A stretch of 64,000 nucleotides of DNA from Minisyncoccia bacterium. Its GTDB lineage: Bacteria; Patescibacteriota; Minisyncoccia; Phycocordibacterales; GWA1-40-21. The notes beneath the pieces were generated by a model. It worked only from the letters and a program-made list of their open reading frames with translations, did not search any database and was not told where the DNA came from. Position 1 is the first letter of the stretch. Each line of letters begins with the position of its first letter. The stretch is from NCBI GenBank assembly GCA_049695975.1, contig JBAVTE010000027.1, positions 32,972 to 96,971 on the forward strand. The letters run 5' to 3'. The position numbers and the translations under genes were made by a program. This document shows positions 1-8,744 of this stretch, one piece after another.

Positions 1-2664
1 AATCATTTTGCCATTGCCGAGGAAGTGACGATCAAAGGCAACCGCACCAAACGGCCGGATATTGTCTTGTATGTGAACGGCATCGCTGTTGGCGTGATTG
101 AACTCAAACGAAGTATTGTGTCCGTGTCCGAAGGTATTCGCCAAAACATCGGTAATCAAAAAGAGGAATTTATCAAAACATTTTTCGGCACGATTCAGTT
201 GGTTATGGCCGGCAACGATACTGAAGGCTTGCGTTATGGTACGACCGAGACTCCCGAACAGCATTATCTGTCTTGGAAAGAGACCGGCCTCGGCAGTGAG
301 TCCAGATTGGACCGAGCTATCTTGCAAATTTGCGATAAGAAGCGACTTTTGGAAATCATCCACGACTTTATTGTCTTTGATAGCGGAATAAAAAAGACCT
401 GCCGACACAATCAGTATTTCGGTGTTAAGGCCGCTCAAGATTATGTAAACCGTCACGAGGGCGGAATTGTTTGGCATACGCAAGGCAGTGGCAAGAGTTT
501 GACGATGGTTTGGCTGGCCAAATGGATTCGCGAAAACATCAACGATGCTCGGGTGCTTTTGCTTACCGATCGCACCGAACTTGATCAGCAAATCAAACAG
601 GTCTTTGACGGCGTTAACGAAGAAATATATCGAGCACCAAGTGCCAGAGATTTATTGGATGAATTAAATAAAAAAGATAAGTGGTTACTTTGTTCGCTCG
701 TGCATAAATTCGGCCGAGTAAACGGGACCGGCGAACTTGATGTTGATGACTATCTTTCTGAGATAAAGAAAAATTTGCCGAAGGACTTTTCTGCTAAAGG
801 TAATTTGTTTGTATTTGTGGATGAATGTCATCGCTCCCATACCGGCAAACTGCATGAAGCCATGAAGGAACTTTTGCCAACGGCTACCTTTCTCGGTTTT
901 ACCGGCACACCGCTTCTCAAGGTTGATAAATCAAACAGCATCGGTGCCTTTGGACCGTATATCCATACTTATAAATATAATGAGGCCGTGGCCGACAAGG
1001 TGGTTTTGGATTTGCGTTATGAAGCTCGCCGAGTTGATCAAAGTATTAGCTCTCAAGATAAGATTGATGAATGGTTTGAGGAACGCACCCAAGGGCTTAC
1101 CGATGTTGCCAAAGCCGAGCTCAAGCGACGCTGGGGTACGATGCAAAGTTTGCTTTCATCCCGATCACGTTTGGAGAAAGTGGTTTTTGATATCTTGGAC
1201 GATTTCTACAAAAAGGATCGTTTAGCCAGTGGCCGTGGCAATGCCATGCTCGTTGCCAGTAGTATCTATGAAGCTTGTCAGTATTACGAGATTTTTCAGA
1301 CGATGGGCTTTACTAAGTGTGCCGTGGTGACTTCTTACGAACCCGGTGCTTTGTCTACCGATACTCGCGAATATGCGGTCTATCAGAAAATGTTAAACGG
1401 TAAAAGCACAGAAGACTTTGAGAAAGAAATCAAAAAGAAATTTATTGAGACTCCGGGTCAGATGCAGTTATTGATTGTGGTAGATAAACTTTTGACTGGT
1501 TTTGACGCACCTCCGGCCACGTATCTCTACATTGATAAGAACATGCAGGATCACGGTCTGTTCCAAGCAATCTGTCGTGTGAACCGATTGGACGGTGAAG
1601 ACAAAGAGTACGGCTACATCGTAGACTATCGGGACCTGTTCAAAAAGCTGGAGAAAGCAGTTGGCGATTATACCGCCGGTGCTCTCGAAGGTTTTGATAA
1701 AGAAGATGTGATGGGGCTTTTGAAGGATCGCATGGATGAAGGCAAAAAGGATTTGGACGAGGCGATGGAGATCGTGAAGGCACTTTGCGAGCCAGTATCT
1801 CCGCCAAAAGATTCGGCGATGTATATCCGCTATTTCTGTGGTGATGTTGAAAATCCTTACTCCCTCAAAGAAAACGAAATCAAGCGAGTGAAGCTTTATA
1901 AATCAGTCAGTCATCTACTTCGAGCTTATGCCGACTTGGCCAATGATATGGCTGGAGCTGGTTATACCAAAGATCAGGCACAAGCGATTGAGCATGAGGT
2001 TAGATATTACGAACAAGTCCGAATGGAAGTTAAACTTGCCAGCGGTGACTATATTGATCTCAAGAAATACGAACCAGCAATGCGAGTTTTGATTGATCGT
2101 TATATTTCAGCTACCGAAAGTGAAAAGTTATCGGCGTTTGATGATATGACTTTGGTGGACTTGATCGTGAAGAAAGGTGAAGACGCCTTGAATGACTTGC
2201 CGGACGCAATTAAGCAAAGTCAGGAAGCTGTTGCTGAAACGATTGAGAACAACGTCCGCAAATTGATCATTGATGAGATGCCGACTAACCCGAAGTATTA
2301 TTTGCGAATGTCTGAACTTTTGGATGAGCTGGTCAAGAAACGCAAACAGGCTGATGTTGAATATAAGGAATATTTGAAGCAGATCGTGGCTTTGTCCAAG
2401 AAGGTTAAAAACCCGATGAACGAGTCGGTTGGTGCGGAAATAAACACTTCCGCCAAGCGAGCCATTTATGACAACCTCGGTCAGGATGTGAACAAGGCTG
2501 TTGCCGTACATGATGCTGTGATCGCTTCGAGGCAAGCCGATTGGCGTGGTAATCGTTTGAAAGAGCGAGCCATTAAGATTGAAATCAAAAACGCTTTGCC
2601 GGAGATCACGGACGAGGAGTTGAAAAACCTCTTTGAGATTATTAAGAATCAAAATGAGTACTAA
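1..2664 (+). CDS. hsdR: Type I restriction enzyme R subunit (HsdR), 5'-truncated by window edge
   Basis: Frame is open from nt 1. N-terminal PD-(D/E)xK-like segment RPDIVLYVNGIAVGVIELKRS. Helicase motifs GSGKS (Walker A), FVDECHRSH (DEAH/DECH box) and FLGFTGTP. Size and order are typical of HsdR. Confidence 0.85.
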   Translation, partial: NHFAIAEEVTIKGNRTKRPDIVLYVNGIAVGVIELKRSIVSVSEGIRQNIGNQKEEFIKTFFGTIQLVMAGNDTEGLRYGTTETPEQHYLSWKETGLGSESRLDRAILQICDKKRLLEIIHDFIVFDSGIKKTCRHNQYFGVKAAQDYVNRHEGGIVWHTQGSGKSLTMVWLAKWIRENINDARVLLLTDRTELDQQIKQVFDGVNEEIYRAPSARDLLDELNKKDKWLLCSLVHKFGRVNGTGELDVDDYLSEIKKNLPKDFSAKGNLFVFVDECHRSHTGKLHEAMKELLPTATFLGFTGTPLLKVDKSNSIGAFGPYIHTYKYNEAVADKVVLDLRYEARRVDQSISSQDKIDEWFEERTQGLTDVAKAELKRRWGTMQSLLSSRSRLEKVVFDILDDFYKKDRLASGRGNAMLVASSIYEACQYYEIFQTMGFTKCAVVTSYEPGALSTDTREYAVYQKMLNGKSTEDFEKEIKKKFIETPGQMQLLIVVDKLLTGFDAPPATYLYIDKNMQDHGLFQAICRVNRLDGEDKEYGYIVDYRDLFKKLEKAVGDYTAGALEGFDKEDVMGLLKDRMDEGKKDLDEAMEIVKALCEPVSPPKDSAMYIRYFCGDVENPYSLKENEIKRVKLYKSVSHLLRAYADLANDMAGAGYTKDQAQAIEHEVRYYEQVRMEVKLASGDYIDLKKYEPAMRVLIDRYISATESEKLSAFDDMTLVDLIVKKGEDALNDLPDAIKQSQEAVAETIENNVRKLIIDEMPTNPKYYLRMSELLDELVKKRKQADVEYKEYLKQIVALSKKVKNPMNESVGAEINTSAKRAIYDNLGQDVNKAVAVHDAVIASRQADWRGNRLKERAIKIEIKNALPEITDEELKNLFEIIKNQNEY

Positions 2665-3379
2665 TTCTTATCTACAACTTGGCAGTGTCGAAGCTTTGGT
2701 CGTCCGCAAGCCGATCAAGAATTTGCATCTTTCGGTTTTACCTCCCAATGGCTGGGTGCGTGTGACCGCACCGGCCAATATGAAAGACGATGCTATCCGC
2801 ACGCTCTTAGCTTTGAGATTGCCGTGGATTAAGAAACAGCAAGCCAAATTTACCGGTCAAGAAAGGCAAACTAAGCGTGACTATTCGTCTGGTGAGAGTC
2901 ATTACTTTTTTGGCAAACGCTATCGCCTTGAAGTGGTTTATAAAGACGAAGCACCGGTTGTTACCTTGAAAGGCAAAAATAAGATTATTTTACAGGTTCG
3001 GCCAAAGAGCCCAGCAATCAAACGTCGAGAAGTGATGATGGATTGGTATCGCAAGGAATTGCATGTGATTGTTGGTGATCTAATTGCTAAGTGGCAAAAG
3101 AAAATAAGCGTAGAGGTTAAATTCTGGGGCATCAAGCAGATGAAGACTCGCTGGGGTACGTGCAATCATAAAAAGGCACGAGTCTTGATAAATTTAGAGC
3201 TGGCCAAAAAGCCGATTGCCTGCGTGGAGTATGTCGTAGTCCACGAGCTATTGCATTTGATTGAGAAAAAACACAGCGACAAATTTGTCGCCTTAATGAC
3301 AAAATATATCCCGAAATGGAAAGGCATAAAAGAAGAACTGAACAGCTTTATTTTGTCGTACGAGGAGTGGAAGTATTAA
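2654..3379 (+). CDS. DUF45/YgjP-like HExxH metal-dependent hydrolase, commonly linked to hsdR
   Basis: HELLHL zinc-binding motif and WGTCN motif. The ATG at 2654 overlaps the hsdR stop (ATGA), suggesting translational coupling. Confidence 0.6.
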   Translation: MSTNSYLQLGSVEALVVRKPIKNLHLSVLPPNGWVRVTAPANMKDDAIRTLLALRLPWIKKQQAKFTGQERQTKRDYSSGESHYFFGKRYRLEVVYKDEAPVVTLKGKNKIILQVRPKSPAIKRREVMMDWYRKELHVIVGDLIAKWQKKISVEVKFWGIKQMKTRWGTCNHKKARVLINLELAKKPIACVEYVVVHELLHLIEKKHSDKFVALMTKYIPKWKGIKEELNSFILSYEEWKY

Positions 3380-3450
3380 CCTTGACTAGTAAAAATAGGC
3401 TGTAATTTGCTATCGAAAAATTTTCGATAAACTGATATAATTATTGTAGT

Positions 3451-4518
3451 ATGAAATCACAATCCTCAAAAATTAAAGTCGTTGATTTATTTTGTGGCAT
3501 TGGTGGACTGACACACGGTCTTATCAAGGAGGGTTTAGATGTGGTCGCAGGAATTGATAACGATTCAAGCTGTAAATTTGGATATGAATACAACAACAAG
3601 GCTCAATTTATTGACAGCGACATTCTTAAGGTAACACCAGACCAAATCAATAAATTATTTGGTACAAAAAAAGGCACGATCCGTGTTCTTGCTGGTTGTG
3701 CCCCTTGCCAGCCATTTTCAAGATTGAATCTAAAAAAAGTTACCGAAAAACAACTTGAACCTTTGGGTAAATTTGCTCAACTTATCGCGGCTATTCAGCC
3801 TGACATTGTCTCGATGGAGAATGTTAGTGGTTTAGCTGATACAAATAAATATCCCGTCTTTGCAAAATTTATAAAGACACTGGATGATAATGGGTATAAA
3901 TATAAATATGAAGTAGTAGATGTCTCAGAATTTGGCGTACCTCAAAAACGAAAACGATTAGTTTTACTGGCTTCAAAGTTTGGTGAAATTGAATTGATAA
4001 AAAGAACTCACAAAGATAAGCGAGTTACTGTTCGTGATGTCATCAAACACCTTGAACCAATCAAAGATGGTCAAACAAGCAAAAAAGACCCTCTTCATAA
4101 GGCAAGAAAACTTGATCAAATAAATCTTTATCGAATCAAGGCGACTCCGCACAATGGTGGAAACTCAGAAAGTTGGAGTGAAGATTTGATGCTTGCTTGC
4201 CACAAAAAAGCATCTGGGAAAACCTATCGGAGTACCGTATATGGCCGAATGAGATGGGATGAACCAGCACCGACTATGACAACGCAATGCATAGGTCTAG
4301 GGAATGGTCGTTTTGGTCACCCAACACAAAATCGTGCTATAAGTTTAAGGGAGGCCGCAATATTTCAAACATTCCCTGAAAATTATAAATTTACCGAGTC
4401 CGAAGACTCTATGGTGGTTACTAAAGTAGCAAAGTTTATTGGAAACGCAGTACCCGTAAGGCTGGGATCAGTCATTGGCAAGAGTATCAAGAATCACGTT
4501 AGACAATATGAAAAATAA
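3451..4518 (+). CDS. dcm: DNA (cytosine-5)-methyltransferase
   Basis: Motif I DLFCGIGG, motif IV GCAPCQPFS, motif VI ENV, motif VIII QKRKR, motif X GNAVPV. Confidence 0.9.
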   Translation: MKSQSSKIKVVDLFCGIGGLTHGLIKEGLDVVAGIDNDSSCKFGYEYNNKAQFIDSDILKVTPDQINKLFGTKKGTIRVLAGCAPCQPFSRLNLKKVTEKQLEPLGKFAQLIAAIQPDIVSMENVSGLADTNKYPVFAKFIKTLDDNGYKYKYEVVDVSEFGVPQKRKRLVLLASKFGEIELIKRTHKDKRVTVRDVIKHLEPIKDGQTSKKDPLHKARKLDQINLYRIKATPHNGGNSESWSEDLMLACHKKASGKTYRSTVYGRMRWDEPAPTMTTQCIGLGNGRFGHPTQNRAISLREAAIFQTFPENYKFTESEDSMVVTKVAKFIGNAVPVRLGSVIGKSIKNHVRQYEK

Positions 4519-6211
4519 TAACACATTCTCATTCGAAATCTCATTAAGTGTTCTGAATCATCTCGGAAGGAACTTGTACAGGAATTTTATTACTGTACTT
4601 GGTGAAGCGATATCTAATTCATGGGATGCAGATGCAAATAATGTTTGGATAGATATTAATAGCGATAATAATTTTTTTATAAAAGATGATGGTTGTGGAA
4701 TGAATAACCACGATTTTCAGAATAAATTTTTGAAAATCGGCTACTCAAAGAGAAAGGGTAACGGAATATCCTCTCCGAATCATCGTCCATATATCGGTGC
4801 AAAGGGAATAGGTAAATTGGCGTTGCTTTCATGTGCTGAAAAAATAAGTGTCATATCCAAAACCAATAACACTGAATATGTCGGAGGTGTTATAGACAAT
4901 TCTGGTCTTACTAAAGCGATTGAACACGATCTGACCCCAGATAAGTATAAATTAGGAAAGGTGGATTTGAAATCATTCACGCAATATACAGCTGGGCATA
5001 AAAAAGGCACTATTATCTATTTTGATCAAACTAAAGAAGATATAAAAGGCACAATCCCGCATTTGAAGAAATTGATTGCATTATATTTTAGATTTTCTTT
5101 GATTGATGAGAGTTTTAAAATTTTTGTAAATAATGAACAAGTGACGTTTGGTGATATAAAGGACCTGTCAGATGCAACGGAATTTTTATGGAATATCAAC
5201 GACCTAAAAGATCCATATACCGACACATTATCCAAGCTCAAGAATGAGTCAATCGGTTTAAGCACTGCGTTGAAAATCAAAGGTTTTATCGCGACTGTTG
5301 AAAAACCGAGAAATTTAAAAATCGCTGGTACTGAGGAAAAAATCGGTATTGATTTATTTGTTAATGGACGATTAAGAGAAAGGGATATTTTAAAATACTT
5401 GCCTGCTTTTTCGACAAGACATATAGCGAGTTACCTTTATGGTCAAGTGCATTTTGATGAATTAGATAAGGATGGAAAAGATAGGTTTACTAGTAGTAGA
5501 GACGGGATCATTCCTGGAGATGAAAAATATAAAGGATTAATCGAAACTTTGAGAAATGAAATCCTAGAAAAAATTAGTAATAAGTGGGATGAACTTCGCT
5601 TGGCCAGAGATGAAGATGGTGATGATGAGAATCCAAGAAAAACCCTAAAAGAACGCAGAGCGCTCAGCTTGTACAACCTTTCATCAAAGGATTATTCAGG
5701 CGTTAAAAACAACAAAGTTGGTTCCTGGGTTAAAGAATTGCAACCAGATGCGGAATTCAATATCCCGTCATATGTCGACTGTTTTATATCGGAAAACCTT
5801 ATACGAAAATTTATCAAGCATAAAAAAATATCTCTTGATACCAAACGTGACACAATTAATCATTGGAAAAAAATTGAGAATACAGGAAAGACCAACGGTA
5901 ATTTGACTATTGATATAAGAGTTTCAAACGATGATATCTATTATTTGGATATGGAAAATCTTGTGAAAGTCACAGAGCCTAGAAGAGGGTTTCCTCCGAA
6001 TACTTTACTTACAGACGAAACACAGTTTACTCCTATAAGAAATGCTGTTATGCATACGGCTATGTTAACTGACCAAGCAAAGCAAAAGTTAACGACCGTC
6101 TATGAAAATATTAAAGGAAAAGTATTGATTCTTTTGGCTGATAAGAAGAAAGCTTCGACTAAAAGTATCAAAAAAACTAAAAAAGGTAGGGCAAATAATC
6201 TACTAAAGTAA
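4508..6211 (+). CDS. GHKL/HATPase_c_3 (paraMORC-like) ATP-binding protein, translationally coupled to dcm
   Basis: Bergerat-fold motifs EAISNSWDA, IKDDGCGM and GAKGIGKLA. The ATG at 4508 overlaps the dcm 3' end by 11 nt (alternative start at 4475). The C-terminal ~300 aa have no recognised domain. Confidence 0.65.
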   Translation: MKNNNTFSFEISLSVLNHLGRNLYRNFITVLGEAISNSWDADANNVWIDINSDNNFFIKDDGCGMNNHDFQNKFLKIGYSKRKGNGISSPNHRPYIGAKGIGKLALLSCAEKISVISKTNNTEYVGGVIDNSGLTKAIEHDLTPDKYKLGKVDLKSFTQYTAGHKKGTIIYFDQTKEDIKGTIPHLKKLIALYFRFSLIDESFKIFVNNEQVTFGDIKDLSDATEFLWNINDLKDPYTDTLSKLKNESIGLSTALKIKGFIATVEKPRNLKIAGTEEKIGIDLFVNGRLRERDILKYLPAFSTRHIASYLYGQVHFDELDKDGKDRFTSSRDGIIPGDEKYKGLIETLRNEILEKISNKWDELRLARDEDGDDENPRKTLKERRALSLYNLSSKDYSGVKNNKVGSWVKELQPDAEFNIPSYVDCFISENLIRKFIKHKKISLDTKRDTINHWKKIENTGKTNGNLTIDIRVSNDDIYYLDMENLVKVTEPRRGFPPNTLLTDETQFTPIRNAVMHTAMLTDQAKQKLTTVYENIKGKVLILLADKKKASTKSIKKTKKGRANNLLK

Positions 6212-6236
6212 AGTTTGGAGTCTTGATTAAAACAAC

Positions 6237-6416
6237 ATGTCCGACACCGACGATCCAATTAAAGACGAGCCAGATGAAGAAGCTCCGGACGAGGAAGTCG
6301 CCGAGCTTATGGAAACCCACGATCTCGATCAGGACACGGCCGAGCGTGTGCAGGAGATTATGGAAGATTTGGGTGTAGACGAGGACGACGCAGTCGAACT
6401 TGAGGAACTTCTTTAA
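6237..6416 (+). CDS. Small hyper-acidic protein (59 aa, about 45% Asp/Glu), absent from the ORF track
   Basis: ATG at 6237 and TAA at 6414-6416. Sequence is MSDTDDPIKDEPDEEAPDEEVAELMETHDLDQDTAERVQEIMEDLGVDEDDAVELEELL. Local GC is high. Confidence 0.45.
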   Translation: MSDTDDPIKDEPDEEAPDEEVAELMETHDLDQDTAERVQEIMEDLGVDEDDAVELEELL

Positions 6417-6426
6417 TTTATAGAAT

Positions 6427-7044
6427 ATGGAAATCTCAAAAGAAAGACTCGAAGAGTTAAGACAAATTTATAAAAAGGATTTTAATGCCGATCTTAGTGA
6501 TCAGGAATTGCACGATGCCGCTTTTAATCTTATTGGGTTTTATGACACGTTGTCAAAAATGGCATTTAAAGATATACAGAATCATCTGCGTTTGGAGAAA
6601 GAGCCGAACGGCTGGCCATTCACCGACAGTAGTGGTGACTGCAAATTTTGTGGTTACTATTTCGAGAAGAACGATTTTTGGTTTGATAAGTTCGGCTTTA
6701 AGTGTAAATTTTGCCAGAGAGCGGTCAATGACGGGATTATTCCCGGCGCAGTTTGTCGAAATAAGGAAAAATGGTTTTCTCTCGAAACTCTCAAGGAAAA
6801 ATTCGGCATTCATTCACAGACAGCTCGATCACTTATCAGAAAGGGAGAACTTAAGGCTCGGGTTATTTTAAACGATGCCGGCAAGCCACATTTTACGGTT
6901 TTTCTACGAGAAGAAAACTATAAATTTCTCAAGATTGGTAAAGACGTGCCGGTTAGCGAGCTTGAAGATTATGACTTGCAGGTGGCCAAATGGGCTGAGG
7001 ATTATAAAAAGAAAATGACCGAAGAACAGAAGTCTGGCAAGTAG
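6427..7044 (+). CDS. Hypothetical protein with Cys4 zinc-finger-like motif and possible HTH
   Basis: CKFCGYY...CKFCQ motif. The segment SLETLKEKFGIHSQTARSLIRKGELKA is helix-turn-helix-like. Higher GC than the host backbone. Confidence 0.5.
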   Translation: MEISKERLEELRQIYKKDFNADLSDQELHDAAFNLIGFYDTLSKMAFKDIQNHLRLEKEPNGWPFTDSSGDCKFCGYYFEKNDFWFDKFGFKCKFCQRAVNDGIIPGAVCRNKEKWFSLETLKEKFGIHSQTARSLIRKGELKARVILNDAGKPHFTVFLREENYKFLKIGKDVPVSELEDYDLQVAKWAEDYKKKMTEEQKSGK

Positions 7045-7573
7045 TCATATTTGCTTAACATTGCTTAACTTAAGCAAATCGTTTTAGGCTCTCAATTTTG
7101 GTCAAACCGGTGGGCTATGGTGAGGATGGTATCAAACGTCTACTCTTGATACAAAGCTCGCCCCAGGGGCAAACACGTGGCAGAAATCGGTGAGTTAAGT
7201 TCGGGCCCGGTTAGTTCCATTCACAAACTCGTAGAAATGGGATAAACTGTCATTATCTGGTAGCAAGCAGTGCTTCGTGAGCGATCTTGAGCTGATTCCA
7301 TTCGGCCAATTCTCGCAATATTTCGTTCCACCGGTTGCTTACCAAGTCCACATAAGTGAATTTCTCCGCGAAAATGAGTCCGCGCTCCGCGCGGTAATGG
7401 GAAGTTCGGCAAGAAAAGAAAAGGGCGTTTTGAAATCCACGGAGAGTGCGCTTGCGTGCAAATATAAGCAAGGACCGAAAAAGTAAGGACAGTCCTTGCT
7501 ACAGGATTATGTATTGCCATTTCTGGATTCTATCCAGAAACCGCCATATGTGTGTGCACATTACCATATAAAT

Positions 7574-7602
7574 TTGACAGAAAAACATACATCGTGTATA
7601 AT
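7574..7602 (+). promoter_or_regulatory. Consensus sigma70-type promoter (TTGACA-17-TATAAT) with strong RBS (AGGAGGTGAGG) ahead of the lipoprotein gene
   Basis: TTGACA at 7574-7579, a 17-nt spacer, and TATAAT at 7597-7602. AGGAGG lies about 8 nt upstream of ATG 7648. Confidence 0.7.
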
Positions 7603-7647
7603 ATTGAAAGACTGTTAAATTAACAAATATATAGGAGGTGAGGAAAA

Positions 7648-8022
7648 ATGAAAAAACTTTTTGTTTTTTCGCCGGTCGTAGTGTTCGTTCTGTGTTTGTC
7701 ACTTTGTGGATGCGAAGGGAGTGGTGATCGTGATGATCATTATTATAATGATCAATCATATGTTTCTGTCGTTATTCGTAACGACTGGATCAGAGATGTG
7801 CAGGTTTTTGTGGGTAATGTAAAATTTAGTCAGATTAAACCTGGTGAAAGCGGTTGGGTTTCGAGAAACCTAATCGGCGATGAACATTTATACATAACTA
7901 TCTGGTTTTGCAACTCGTACGGGTTCCCGATAATCGAAAGTGAGAAGTATAAATTTGATCGGGAGTATAGTGAGTACCACATGAATATTGAGTCACCACC
8001 AAACAATATTGATGTGTATTGA
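7648..8022 (+). CDS. Putative secreted lipoprotein
   Basis: Signal peptide MKKLFVFSPVVVFVLCLSLCGC with an LCGC lipobox-like cysteine. Consensus promoter and RBS upstream. Confidence 0.6.
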   Translation: MKKLFVFSPVVVFVLCLSLCGCEGSGDRDDHYYNDQSYVSVVIRNDWIRDVQVFVGNVKFSQIKPGESGWVSRNLIGDEHLYITIWFCNSYGFPIIESEKYKFDREYSEYHMNIESPPNNIDVY

Positions 8023-8040
8023 GAAACAATAAATAACAAC

Positions 8041-8074
8041 AAAGCGCGTGAGATATTTCTCCGCGCTTTTATTA
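8041..8074 (+). terminator. Rho-independent terminator
   Basis: AAAGCGCG-loop-CGCGCTTTT hairpin followed by a T-run. Confidence 0.6.
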
Positions 8075-8138
8075 TTGAATTAAATAATAAATAATTTATA
8101 AAAATTGCATTATATTTAATAAAAGATAGAATGAGAAA

Positions 8139-8744
8139 ATGGTTTTGTTTTTAATTGGAACTTTATTATTAATTTTTATAATTAATGTCATTCCGGCATT
8201 TATGCCACCGACGTGGATTTTACTTTCTTTGGTAGGTTATAATTTTCATTTAAACAATTACAATTTGGCGATACTGGCGGTTTTGGCTGCAGTAGCTTCA
8301 TCCGGGGGACGAGCTATTTTAGCTATTTTATCAAATAAAATTTTACGTTACAAAATTATTTCAGACGAAACTAAACAAAATTTGGATATCTTGAAAGAAA
8401 ATATCATAAAAAGAAAAAATTTTACGAAGGGTTTCTTTTTATTCTATGCTTTTTCGCCGTTTCCCTCGGGGCAGTTATTTTTAGCTTACGGTATGACTGA
8501 TCTTAAACTAAGTCTGGCAATTATTCCATTTTTTATTGGTCGTTTAAGTAGTTATTTCTTTTGGATTTTTGCTTCTTCCGAGACATCAAAAATAATTGAT
8601 TTAAATTCTTTTAAATTCGGTGCATATTTCGGTGTATATTTTATTTTGGGACAAATTTTTGCTTTATATTTGGTTTATTTAATTGCCAAAATAGATTGGA
8701 AAGTTCTATTTGAAGAATACAAATTAAGAATTATAAATAAATAA
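8139..8744 (+). CDS. Polytopic membrane protein, DedA/VTT-like
   Basis: Multiple TM helices. The PAFMPPTWILLSLVG segment resembles the DedA/YqaA re-entrant motif. Confidence 0.45.
   Translation: MVLFLIGTLLLIFIINVIPAFMPPTWILLSLVGYNFHLNNYNLAILAVLAAVASSGGRAILAILSNKILRYKIISDETKQNLDILKENIIKRKNFTKGFFLFYAFSPFPSGQLFLAYGMTDLKLSLAIIPFFIGRLSSYFFWIFASSETSKIIDLNSFKFGAYFGVYFILGQIFALYLVYLIAKIDWKVLFEEYKLRIINK

Follow-up and report, generated by a model that had tools for sequence, protein, structure and literature searches.

This analysis concerns a pair of genes in a 64,000-nucleotide (nt) stretch of contig JBAVTE010000027.1 from a Minisyncoccia bacterium (the window, whose coordinates are used throughout): dcm, which encodes a C5 DNA cytosine methyltransferase (C5-methylase), and the gene directly downstream, which encodes a 567-amino acid (aa) protein joining a GHKL ATPase to a predicted HEPN RNase domain (GHKL-HEPN). 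The two genes form a self-contained, horizontally mobile and translationally coupled two-gene module that a type I restriction system merely adjoins. By sequence and structural model, the last ~170 aa of the GHKL-HEPN protein are a HEPN domain with complete catalytic motifs, for which RNase activity is predicted. The best explanation, to which we give about an even chance, is that the module senses the methylation status of DNA and answers with RNase activity. The protein is identical to a 567-aa ATPase from a Minisyncoccia metagenome-assembled genome annotated just as ‘ATP-binding protein’, and this is also mostly the only name given to family members in source and plasmid records. The features of the pair are as follows:

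3451-4518, + strand: dcm, C5-methylase of 355 aa, the protective partner (PF00145 over positions 1-323 of 324, 7.8e-59)
4508-6211, + strand: GHKL-HEPN gene, predicted effector of 567 aa (from the open reading frame (ORF) and junction; ATG at 4508, stop at 6209-6211)
4526-5614, + strand: GHKL and middle (transducer) chassis, aa 7-369, common with BbrUII/HgiDII type II restriction enzymes
4586-4876, + strand: Bergerat-fold ATP-binding domain, aa 27-123, motifs I-III (PF13589, 1e-16)
5006-5011, + strand: Bergerat motif IV, G167-T168 (motif residues)
5741-6139, + strand: HEPN core, aa 412-544, predicted metal-independent RNase effector
5792-5806, + strand: E429-x3-R433 (SENLIRK), HEPN accessory acidic/basic motif (conservation; translation checked)
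6038-6055, + strand: R511-N-A-V-M-H516, HEPN R-x4-H catalytic motif (conservation; position in the model)

More than 4,600 homologous proteins were retrieved. In a survey of 185,579 species, each represented by one genome, 384 relatives were confirmed and the best 80 loci were analysed; these span very many phyla (among them Patescibacteria, Chloroflexota, Proteobacteria, Planctomycetota, Omnitrophota, Bacteroidota, Nitrospirota and Woesearchaeota). A C5-methylase gene was present in 80/80 genomic loci, directly upstream on the same strand in ~74/80 and, in the six exceptions, still within a few kb, in defence islands or beside a transposase. Full-length homologues on IMG/VR viral contigs likewise had dcm upstream on the same strand in 9/9 cases, directly so in 8/9, with a second GHKL gene between dcm and the GHKL-HEPN gene in viral locus L087. 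The pairing with a methylase that the initial annotation had proposed to look for thus held at all surveyed genomic and viral loci, and a housekeeping context, which it had named as evidence against a defence role, was never seen there. The complete module was also found on a 20-kb conjugative Paracoccus plasmid. In the window, the dcm stop codon (TAA, 4516-4518) gives an 11-nt overlap with the GHKL start, for which ATG 4508 agrees with the N-termini of homologues and the upstream TTG 4475 does not. Such an overlap occurred in 61/71 related loci, with −11 nt as the commonest spacing (n = 24), and is therefore more than chance. Besides PF00145, the methylase matched TIGR00675 and PADLOC MTase_II, and six of its motifs were found by string search (DLFCGIGG, PCQPFS, ENV, QKRKR, REAA and GNAVP).

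Only the ATPase (80 loci) and dcm (78 loci) emerged as conserved families when the ORFs flanking the 80 loci were clustered, all remaining clusters being antisense artefacts inside these two genes. The clustering gave neither a third conserved gene nor a separate nuclease, and the possibility of a third gene supplying a DNase was rejected on these grounds. An hsdR-like gene lay near the module in just 7/80 loci, so that the type I system was rejected as a functional partner and is taken as a neighbour only; a YgjP gene was present in a single locus (L013). Two downstream ORFs of the window were rejected as parts of the module, the acidic ORF at 6237 being present in 2/80 loci and the ORF at 6427 in 0/80.

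The HEPN assignment draws on conservation and on structure prediction. Across 26 close homologues and 41 diverse C-terminal domains (to 21% identity), the invariant residues were Y422, E429, N430, R433, R511 and H516; the conserved patterns of the C-terminal region read SE-N-L-x-R and P-x-R-[ND]-x3-H-T, and R[ND]xxxH occurred in 41/41 full-length representatives of 50%-identity clusters. The diverse alignment served to build an AlphaFold model of aa 376-567, which was all-alpha with a mean predicted local distance difference test score (pLDDT) of 89.5, and placed R511 in the last turn of a helix (500-515) and H516 as the first loop residue, followed by a further helix (522-544). HEPN domains have been defined by four features (PMC3710099): R-x4-6-H extending from the end of helix 3 into the loop; N, D or H as a polar residue following that R; E-x3-[KR]; and an insertion that separates helices 2 and 3. 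All four features were found in the window protein's C-terminal domain, which in the model also forms the expected four-helix up-and-down bundle with the helix 2-3 insert. Lower-ranked matches of the C-terminal model included Csm6, HepT-type toxins and Cas13b. The initial annotation had seen no nuclease motif in the C-terminal ~300 aa of the ATPase; this has to be revised, R-N-x3-H and E-x3-R both being present, with ~250 aa in the middle of the protein assigned to the chassis and the last ~170 aa to the HEPN domain. The Lys-rich tail KKASTKSIKKTKKGRANNLLK at 6146-6208 (aa 547-567) is absent from almost all homologues and was modelled with low confidence.

Searches with the C-terminal part alone gave nothing significant in Pfam, PHROGs, PADLOC or NCBIfam, and PDB sequences, searched with a profile of the C-terminal alignment, gave chance matches only (ferritin at 0.07). 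Weak Pfam matches among the 41 members (E 0.005-0.05) were to three HEPN families (Swt1, Abi_2 and RNase 2-5A) and, at the same level, also to unrelated families. Using phmmer with the C-terminal domain against 1.8 billion cluster representatives, 174 proteins were retrieved, all of the same architecture or fragments of it, and no stand-alone or differently fused copies of the domain were detectable by sequence in that set. A divergent Ymh domain was considered and rejected: PF09509 was matched by 0/41 members at E up to 1, and hhalign against the Neisseria Ymh domain aligned the R-N-x3-H motif only (18 columns, E = 0.11). As a positive control, the Neisseria domain itself matched PF09509 at 2.9e-25.

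The N-terminal part of the protein carries the four motifs of the GHKL superfamily, I (E-x3-N), II (D-x-G-x-G), III (G-x-x-G-x-G) and IV (G-T), together with a HATPase_c-type match, and the Bergerat residues E33/N37, D60-G62-G64, G97/G100/G102 and G167-T168 were invariant in 26 homologues. The nearest named family by sequence is BbrUII/HgiDII. The corresponding NCBIfam equivalog (NF050001, ‘BbrUII/HgiDII family restriction enzyme’), which has a curated full-length cut-off of 550 bits, matched aa 7-369 on positions 1-366 of 659 with 295 bits, a score and a partial coverage that leave the window protein outside the family. The same N-terminal part was matched by the PADLOC restriction endonuclease (REase) models of REase_II, PDLC03419 and PDLC03485, and weak matches to MutL, Hsp90 and sacsin were also obtained. 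The motifs conserved in the middle domain are common to sister families with other tails and therefore belong to the chassis. In Foldseek the predicted N-terminal and middle parts, which resemble Hsp90/TRAP1 in the model, aligned to these proteins, the middle domain being modelled at low confidence (pLDDT 33-57 over aa 270-335). The paraMORC proteins were defined by a GHKL domain followed by an S5-fold domain in restriction-modification neighbourhoods (Iyer et al. 2008, PMC2292703), and the supplement of that study holds no list placing the window family in any of paraMORC1-5. The label ‘paraMORC-like’ used in the initial annotation is accordingly a loose one: the GHKL domain and the restriction-modification neighbourhood fit it, the nearest named family is a different one, and the low-confidence model of the middle domain aligns to Hsp90/TRAP1.

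The relationship to the BbrUII/HgiDII enzymes extends to both genes. Members above the cut-off were found on plasmids from Halobaculum (801 bits) and Burkholderia glumae (651 bits), both matching over 1-659; these proteins of 668-677 aa are encoded behind a C5-methylase gene lying directly upstream on the same strand, which overlaps in Halobaculum and stands 9 nt before in B. glumae. A Campylobacter coli protein of 676 aa with the same architecture matched NF050001 along its length at 336 bits, below the cut-off. The tails of the three proteins share H-x-WLLDP and D...[DE]LK patterns, with one weak HSDR_N match. The window protein aligned with all three to ~residue 370, the GHKL and middle domains being homologous to those of BbrUII/HgiDII over ~365 aa, and then diverged completely. 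The C-terminal domain of BbrUII/HgiDII (~290 aa, D...[DE]LK) is absent from the window protein, which ends ~100 aa earlier in unrelated sequence; the BbrUII/HgiDII enzymes, which are the characterised relatives, thus differ in their length of ~660-680 aa and PD-(D/E)xK-like tail, where the window protein, with 567 aa, has HEPN instead. Their methylases are of the same C5-methylase subfamily as the window Dcm (46-47% identical, including the target-recognition region). More broadly, the window Dcm shared 44-52% identity with the methylase partners of HEPN-type members, of BbrUII/HgiDII enzymes, of the Campylobacter protein and of a Listeria 644-aa GHKL protein, and the target-recognition region of these partners was conserved like the catalytic core (43-60%). 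Judged by sequence, the dcm-GHKL chassis has sister families with a PD-(D/E)xK-like tail, with a Ymh-type HEPN domain and of the Listeria type.

In a few loci, more than one such effector gene was found behind a single methylase gene. L022 (3011-7644) has dcm followed by a GHKL gene of the Listeria 644-aa type and then GHKL-HEPN, L087 (1050-5641) has dcm, a second GHKL gene and GHKL-HEPN, and L054 (2377-7671) has dcm, a frameshifted gene of BbrUII/HgiDII type, Vsr and GHKL-HEPN. These arrangements look like effectors that share one methylase and have been stacked or replaced in situ. A decayed locus with Ymh-HEPN was seen in Neisseria gonorrhoeae (L085, NZ_CP119142, 2086-4623), in the order dcm, GHKL, Ymh-HEPN, where dcm is broken into two ORFs, the GHKL ORF ends after 297 aa and Ymh is encoded apart, by an ORF of 198 aa; NZ_CP119142 is a 2.17-Mb chromosome filed under plasmids.

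Pairwise identities of dcm and of the ATPase were weakly correlated (r = 0.22-0.31), compared with r = 0.81 for the two parts of the ATPase. A comparison of window 1-7182 with L013 (MFQZ01000008, Magasanikbacteria, 1494-8030) revealed a mosaic. DNA identity was 90% over window 1-4866, a stretch that takes in hsdR, YgjP, dcm and ~360 nt at the start of the GHKL gene; beyond that point the GHKL gene had no nucleotide match, with ~42-54% protein identity (55% over the whole protein), and identity returned to 89% in the acidic ORF (6250-6418). The methylase was 97% identical between the two loci beside GHKL alleles of 55% identity, and this, with the break in similarity, indicates that the middle and HEPN parts were exchanged by recombination. 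Together, the Dcm identities, the stacked loci, the weak dcm-ATPase correlation and this mosaic suggest that the methylases are interchangeable, as a shared or similar specificity would give, and that the effector part has been exchanged by recombination. The G+C content was 0.37-0.45 across 1-7500 against 0.25-0.33 in the flanks, so that the region looks acquired. Values of 0.33-0.34 were obtained for the GHKL-HEPN gene (4501-6000) and of 0.41-0.45 for the upstream hsdR and YgjP genes (1-3000), the low G+C of the GHKL-HEPN gene fitting the recombinational replacement seen against L013.

In the mechanism proposed here, the methylase would mark host DNA at a cognate site, which may be GTCGAC-like because the methylase shares a conserved target-recognition region with those paired with BbrUII/HgiDII enzymes; HgiDII and BbrII recognise GTCGAC. 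The GHKL protein would act as an ATP-driven dimeric clamp that inspects DNA and reads its methylation state. On meeting unmethylated cognate sites, either because phage or plasmid DNA has entered or because the methylase has been lost, it would undergo an ATP-dependent conformational change bringing two HEPN domains into an active arrangement, HEPN RNases generally needing a composite active site from two domains. The active pair would cut RNA (tRNA, mRNA or rRNA) and growth would stop, leading to abortive infection or post-segregational killing and not to the cutting of invader DNA. This extends what Anantharaman et al. proposed for paraMORC-Ymh proteins (PMC3710099), with one departure: methylation itself would be the more economical control, since there is no conserved restriction nuclease to ‘guard’. 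Several points weigh against a methylation-sensing RNase module: RNase activity, trigger and recognition site have each been inferred; the window protein yielded no identifiable DNA-recognition element; GTCGAC occurs 7 times in the window against 4.0 expected and so is not avoided, in a test of low power; and a 97%-identical methylase with a 55%-identical GHKL protein is as compatible with an ATPase that does not read the site as with a shared specificity. In Bifidobacterium breve, the BbrII methylase is essential by transposon sequencing (Tn-seq), BbrII endonuclease activity having earlier not been demonstrable, and the authors took this essentiality to mean that the GHKL partner is active and harmful without the methylase (PMC5514069). 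The finding fits toxicity of GHKL partners generally and does not discriminate between the models.

Several known systems combine some of these elements. R.HgiDII was described as a GHKL domain with a C-terminal domain of unknown fold, along with four more GHKL-bearing putative REase subfamilies with other tails, R.NmeAIP ending in ‘Hypoth_Ymh’ (Orlowski and Bujnicki, PMC2441816). The paraMORC-Ymh proteins, which have been likened to PrrC/RloC (Anantharaman et al., PMC3710099), likewise have a GHKL ATPase and a C-terminal HEPN domain beside a C5-methylase, with a function predicted in silico only; they differ in that the window HEPN falls outside the Ymh family and the GHKL parts are ~29% identical. 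PrrC and RloC also join an NTPase to a C-terminal HEPN RNase, are linked to restriction-modification genes and would lead one to expect abortive infection. However, their NTPase is of the ABC type as opposed to GHKL in the window protein, and PrrC is embedded in and silenced by a type I system, whereas the sole conserved partner of the window module is the methylase. In VcSduA (paraMORC3 GHKL-Shedu), for which anti-phage activity has been demonstrated, an N-terminal GHKL ATPase controls a C-terminal nuclease within one polypeptide, as proposed here, but the effector is a PD-(D/E)xK DNase (DUF4263) that needs no methylase, and HEPN is lacking (PMC12137116). DARNA (PD-T7-3; bioRxiv 10.64898/2026.02.22.705581) provides a precedent for a DNA signal activating a HEPN tRNase and leading to abortive infection, although it has neither GHKL ATPase nor methylase, its trigger is SSB-bound single-stranded DNA and its HEPN domain is N-terminal.

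Among the alternatives, an ordinary type II endonuclease like HgiDII/BbrUII, with an unrecognised DNase centre and a HEPN-like domain serving DNA binding or dimerisation, would account for the homology of the N-terminal two thirds to BbrUII/HgiDII and to PADLOC REase_II, for the classical order of methylase then nuclease with overlapping genes, and for a methylase of the same subfamily as the BbrUII/HgiDII partners. We nevertheless consider it improbable, as the nuclease-like C-terminal part of that family is missing, the NF050001 score is little more than half the cut-off (295 against 550 bits), the invariant residues of the tail are exactly the HEPN RNase set, and the middle-domain motifs belong to the chassis and recur in the sister families; moreover, HEPN catalysis is proposed to employ the 2'-OH, a group missing from DNA (PMC3710099), and the domain content of the protein, in which no DNase domain was seen, does not predict DNA cleavage. 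Even less credence is given to a non-nucleolytic DNA manager of MORC or MutL type, which would compact or silence unmethylated foreign DNA or help to repair T:G mismatches arising from methylase action, its HEPN domain serving nucleotide binding or dimerisation as suggested for sacsin. GHKL superfamily membership, the weak MutL/Hsp90/sacsin matches and the Vsr gene beside the module in L054 point in that direction, but the catalytic R, H and E and the N/D after the R are strictly conserved, Vsr occurs in just one of the loci examined, and a patchy distribution over phyla, plasmids and viral contigs is what conflict systems, and not repair, typically show, so that this reading appears very improbable.

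The model put forward for paraMORC-Ymh fusions (PMC3710099) is a guard of the PrrC/RloC type, in which the HEPN domain is silenced by binding to the methylase or to a type I enzyme and freed by a phage anti-restriction protein that attacks this partner, methylation as such not being sensed. The fusion of an ATPase to HEPN as in PrrC, the type I hsdR gene directly upstream in the window and the translational coupling, which suits assembly of a stoichiometric complex, are all in keeping with it. Set against these are the scarcity of hsdR-like genes near the module (7/80 loci) with no restriction nuclease conserved with the pair, the retention of the catalytic motifs of the methylase, and the reassortment of dcm and GHKL lineages (r = 0.22-0.31; a 97%-identical methylase with a 55%-identical GHKL protein), which would not be expected of a co-evolving interface. 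A guard is judged unlikely on balance, if worth keeping in view. The methylation-sensing RNase module may also be cast more broadly, and more tentatively, at somewhat below an even chance, as a restriction-modification system with an RNase ‘restriction’ arm, in which C5-methylation is the self mark and the GHKL clamp, on detecting unmethylated sites, fires the HEPN domain at cellular RNA, to give abortive infection or addiction and not cleaved DNA, dcm-GHKL being a general methylation-sensing chassis. The effectors swapped or stacked on this chassis would be a PD-(D/E)xK DNase, two unrelated HEPN families and a Listeria-type tail. It is more speculative that GHKL-HEPN conflict proteins are the prokaryotic antecedents of eukaryotic sacsin (Hsp90-like ATPase with HEPN).

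The pair is set in the following context:

25-2664, + strand: hsdR, type I, context only (5' end cut by the window edge; profile matches)
2654-3379, + strand: YgjP/DUF45 HExxH protein, coupled to hsdR, context only (PF01863, 3.4e-58)
3412-3428: inverted repeat ATCGAAAA-A-TTTTCGAT (sequence read directly; 8-nt arms, TCGA in each)
3413-3441, + strand: predicted promoter-like site, TCGAAA-17 nt-TATAAT with TG (consensus scan, 10/12 matches)
6237-6416, + strand: acidic ORF, 59 aa (25-nt gap, 6212-6236, after the GHKL gene)

The hsdR product matched TIGR00348 from profile position 116, PADLOC REase_I (1241 bits) and SWI2_SNF2/T1R_D3/HSDR_N, and the YgjP-like protein, with HELLH at aa 197, has its own ATG 11 nt inside hsdR. 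The promoter-like site lies 10 nt 5' of the dcm ATG, so that the dcm-ATPase pair could form its own transcription unit. The inverted repeat overlaps the −35 element of this site; it is possibly an operator or a methylation-sensitive control site, and its AT-rich sequence also allows a chance origin. The gene order and coordinates given in the initial annotation, with the 11-nt overlap and the Bergerat motifs, were all reproduced from ORFs, profile matches and the homologue alignment. Its placing of a methylase-paired module behind the type I system also stood, with the addition that the module is a separate unit (own promoter-like site, C5-methylase in 80/80 loci, hsdR-like gene in 7/80); the acidic ORF (2/80 loci) does not belong to it.

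The 25-nt gap, the acidic ORF and the absence of a terminator reported downstream of the ATPase gene were confirmed, no terminator-like sites being found on the + strand in a scan of 2400-8200. The acidic ORF encodes 27 D/E (46% Asp+Glu) and 2 K/R and matched no family significantly; it may be a DNA-mimic-like regulator or an anti-restriction protein. Its protein is 85-86% conserved in the Magasanikbacteria loci L013 and L016, both with a divergent GHKL allele, and is missing from the other 78. An ORF of 205 aa at 6427-7044 (+), with two CxxC pairs, matched HTH_17 weakly (E = 0.003). It is missing from the otherwise collinear L013, where similarity resumes at window 7049-7182 (79%), and so was either inserted in the window or deleted from L013. 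The following ~600 nt (7045-7647; G+C ~0.44) had no convincing ORF and no Rfam family reaching its gathering score, and contained two minus-strand hairpins resembling terminators (7394-7380 and 7174-7156), as well as a promoter of perfect sigma-70 consensus (7574-7602) before a small lipoprotein-like ORF at 7648.

Fusions of GHKL and HEPN beside methylases were predicted in 2008 and 2013 (PMC2441816, PMC3710099), and within the library searched, the papers naming both GHKL and HEPN include no experimental work. New here is a large family of this kind, recognised by a HEPN domain to which Pfam, NCBIfam, PADLOC and PHROGs models gave no match; new also are its sister relationship to a named family of type II REases, from which it differs by a replaced tail, and its organisation as a strictly two-gene mobile unit whose effectors are stacked and swapped on one methylase. 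Any score that defence-system finders gave the family would come from its N-terminal part and name a type II restriction enzyme. Should the effector prove to be an RNase, self/non-self discrimination based on methylation would not be bound to DNA cleavage, and abortive-infection devices would be among the ‘restriction enzymes’ counted in genomes. The effector swaps that occur naturally on one methylase-ATPase chassis offer a clean experimental system for asking how a GHKL clamp reads methylation and signals to a nuclease, and the same question about the GHKL clamp stands for eukaryotic MORC proteins.

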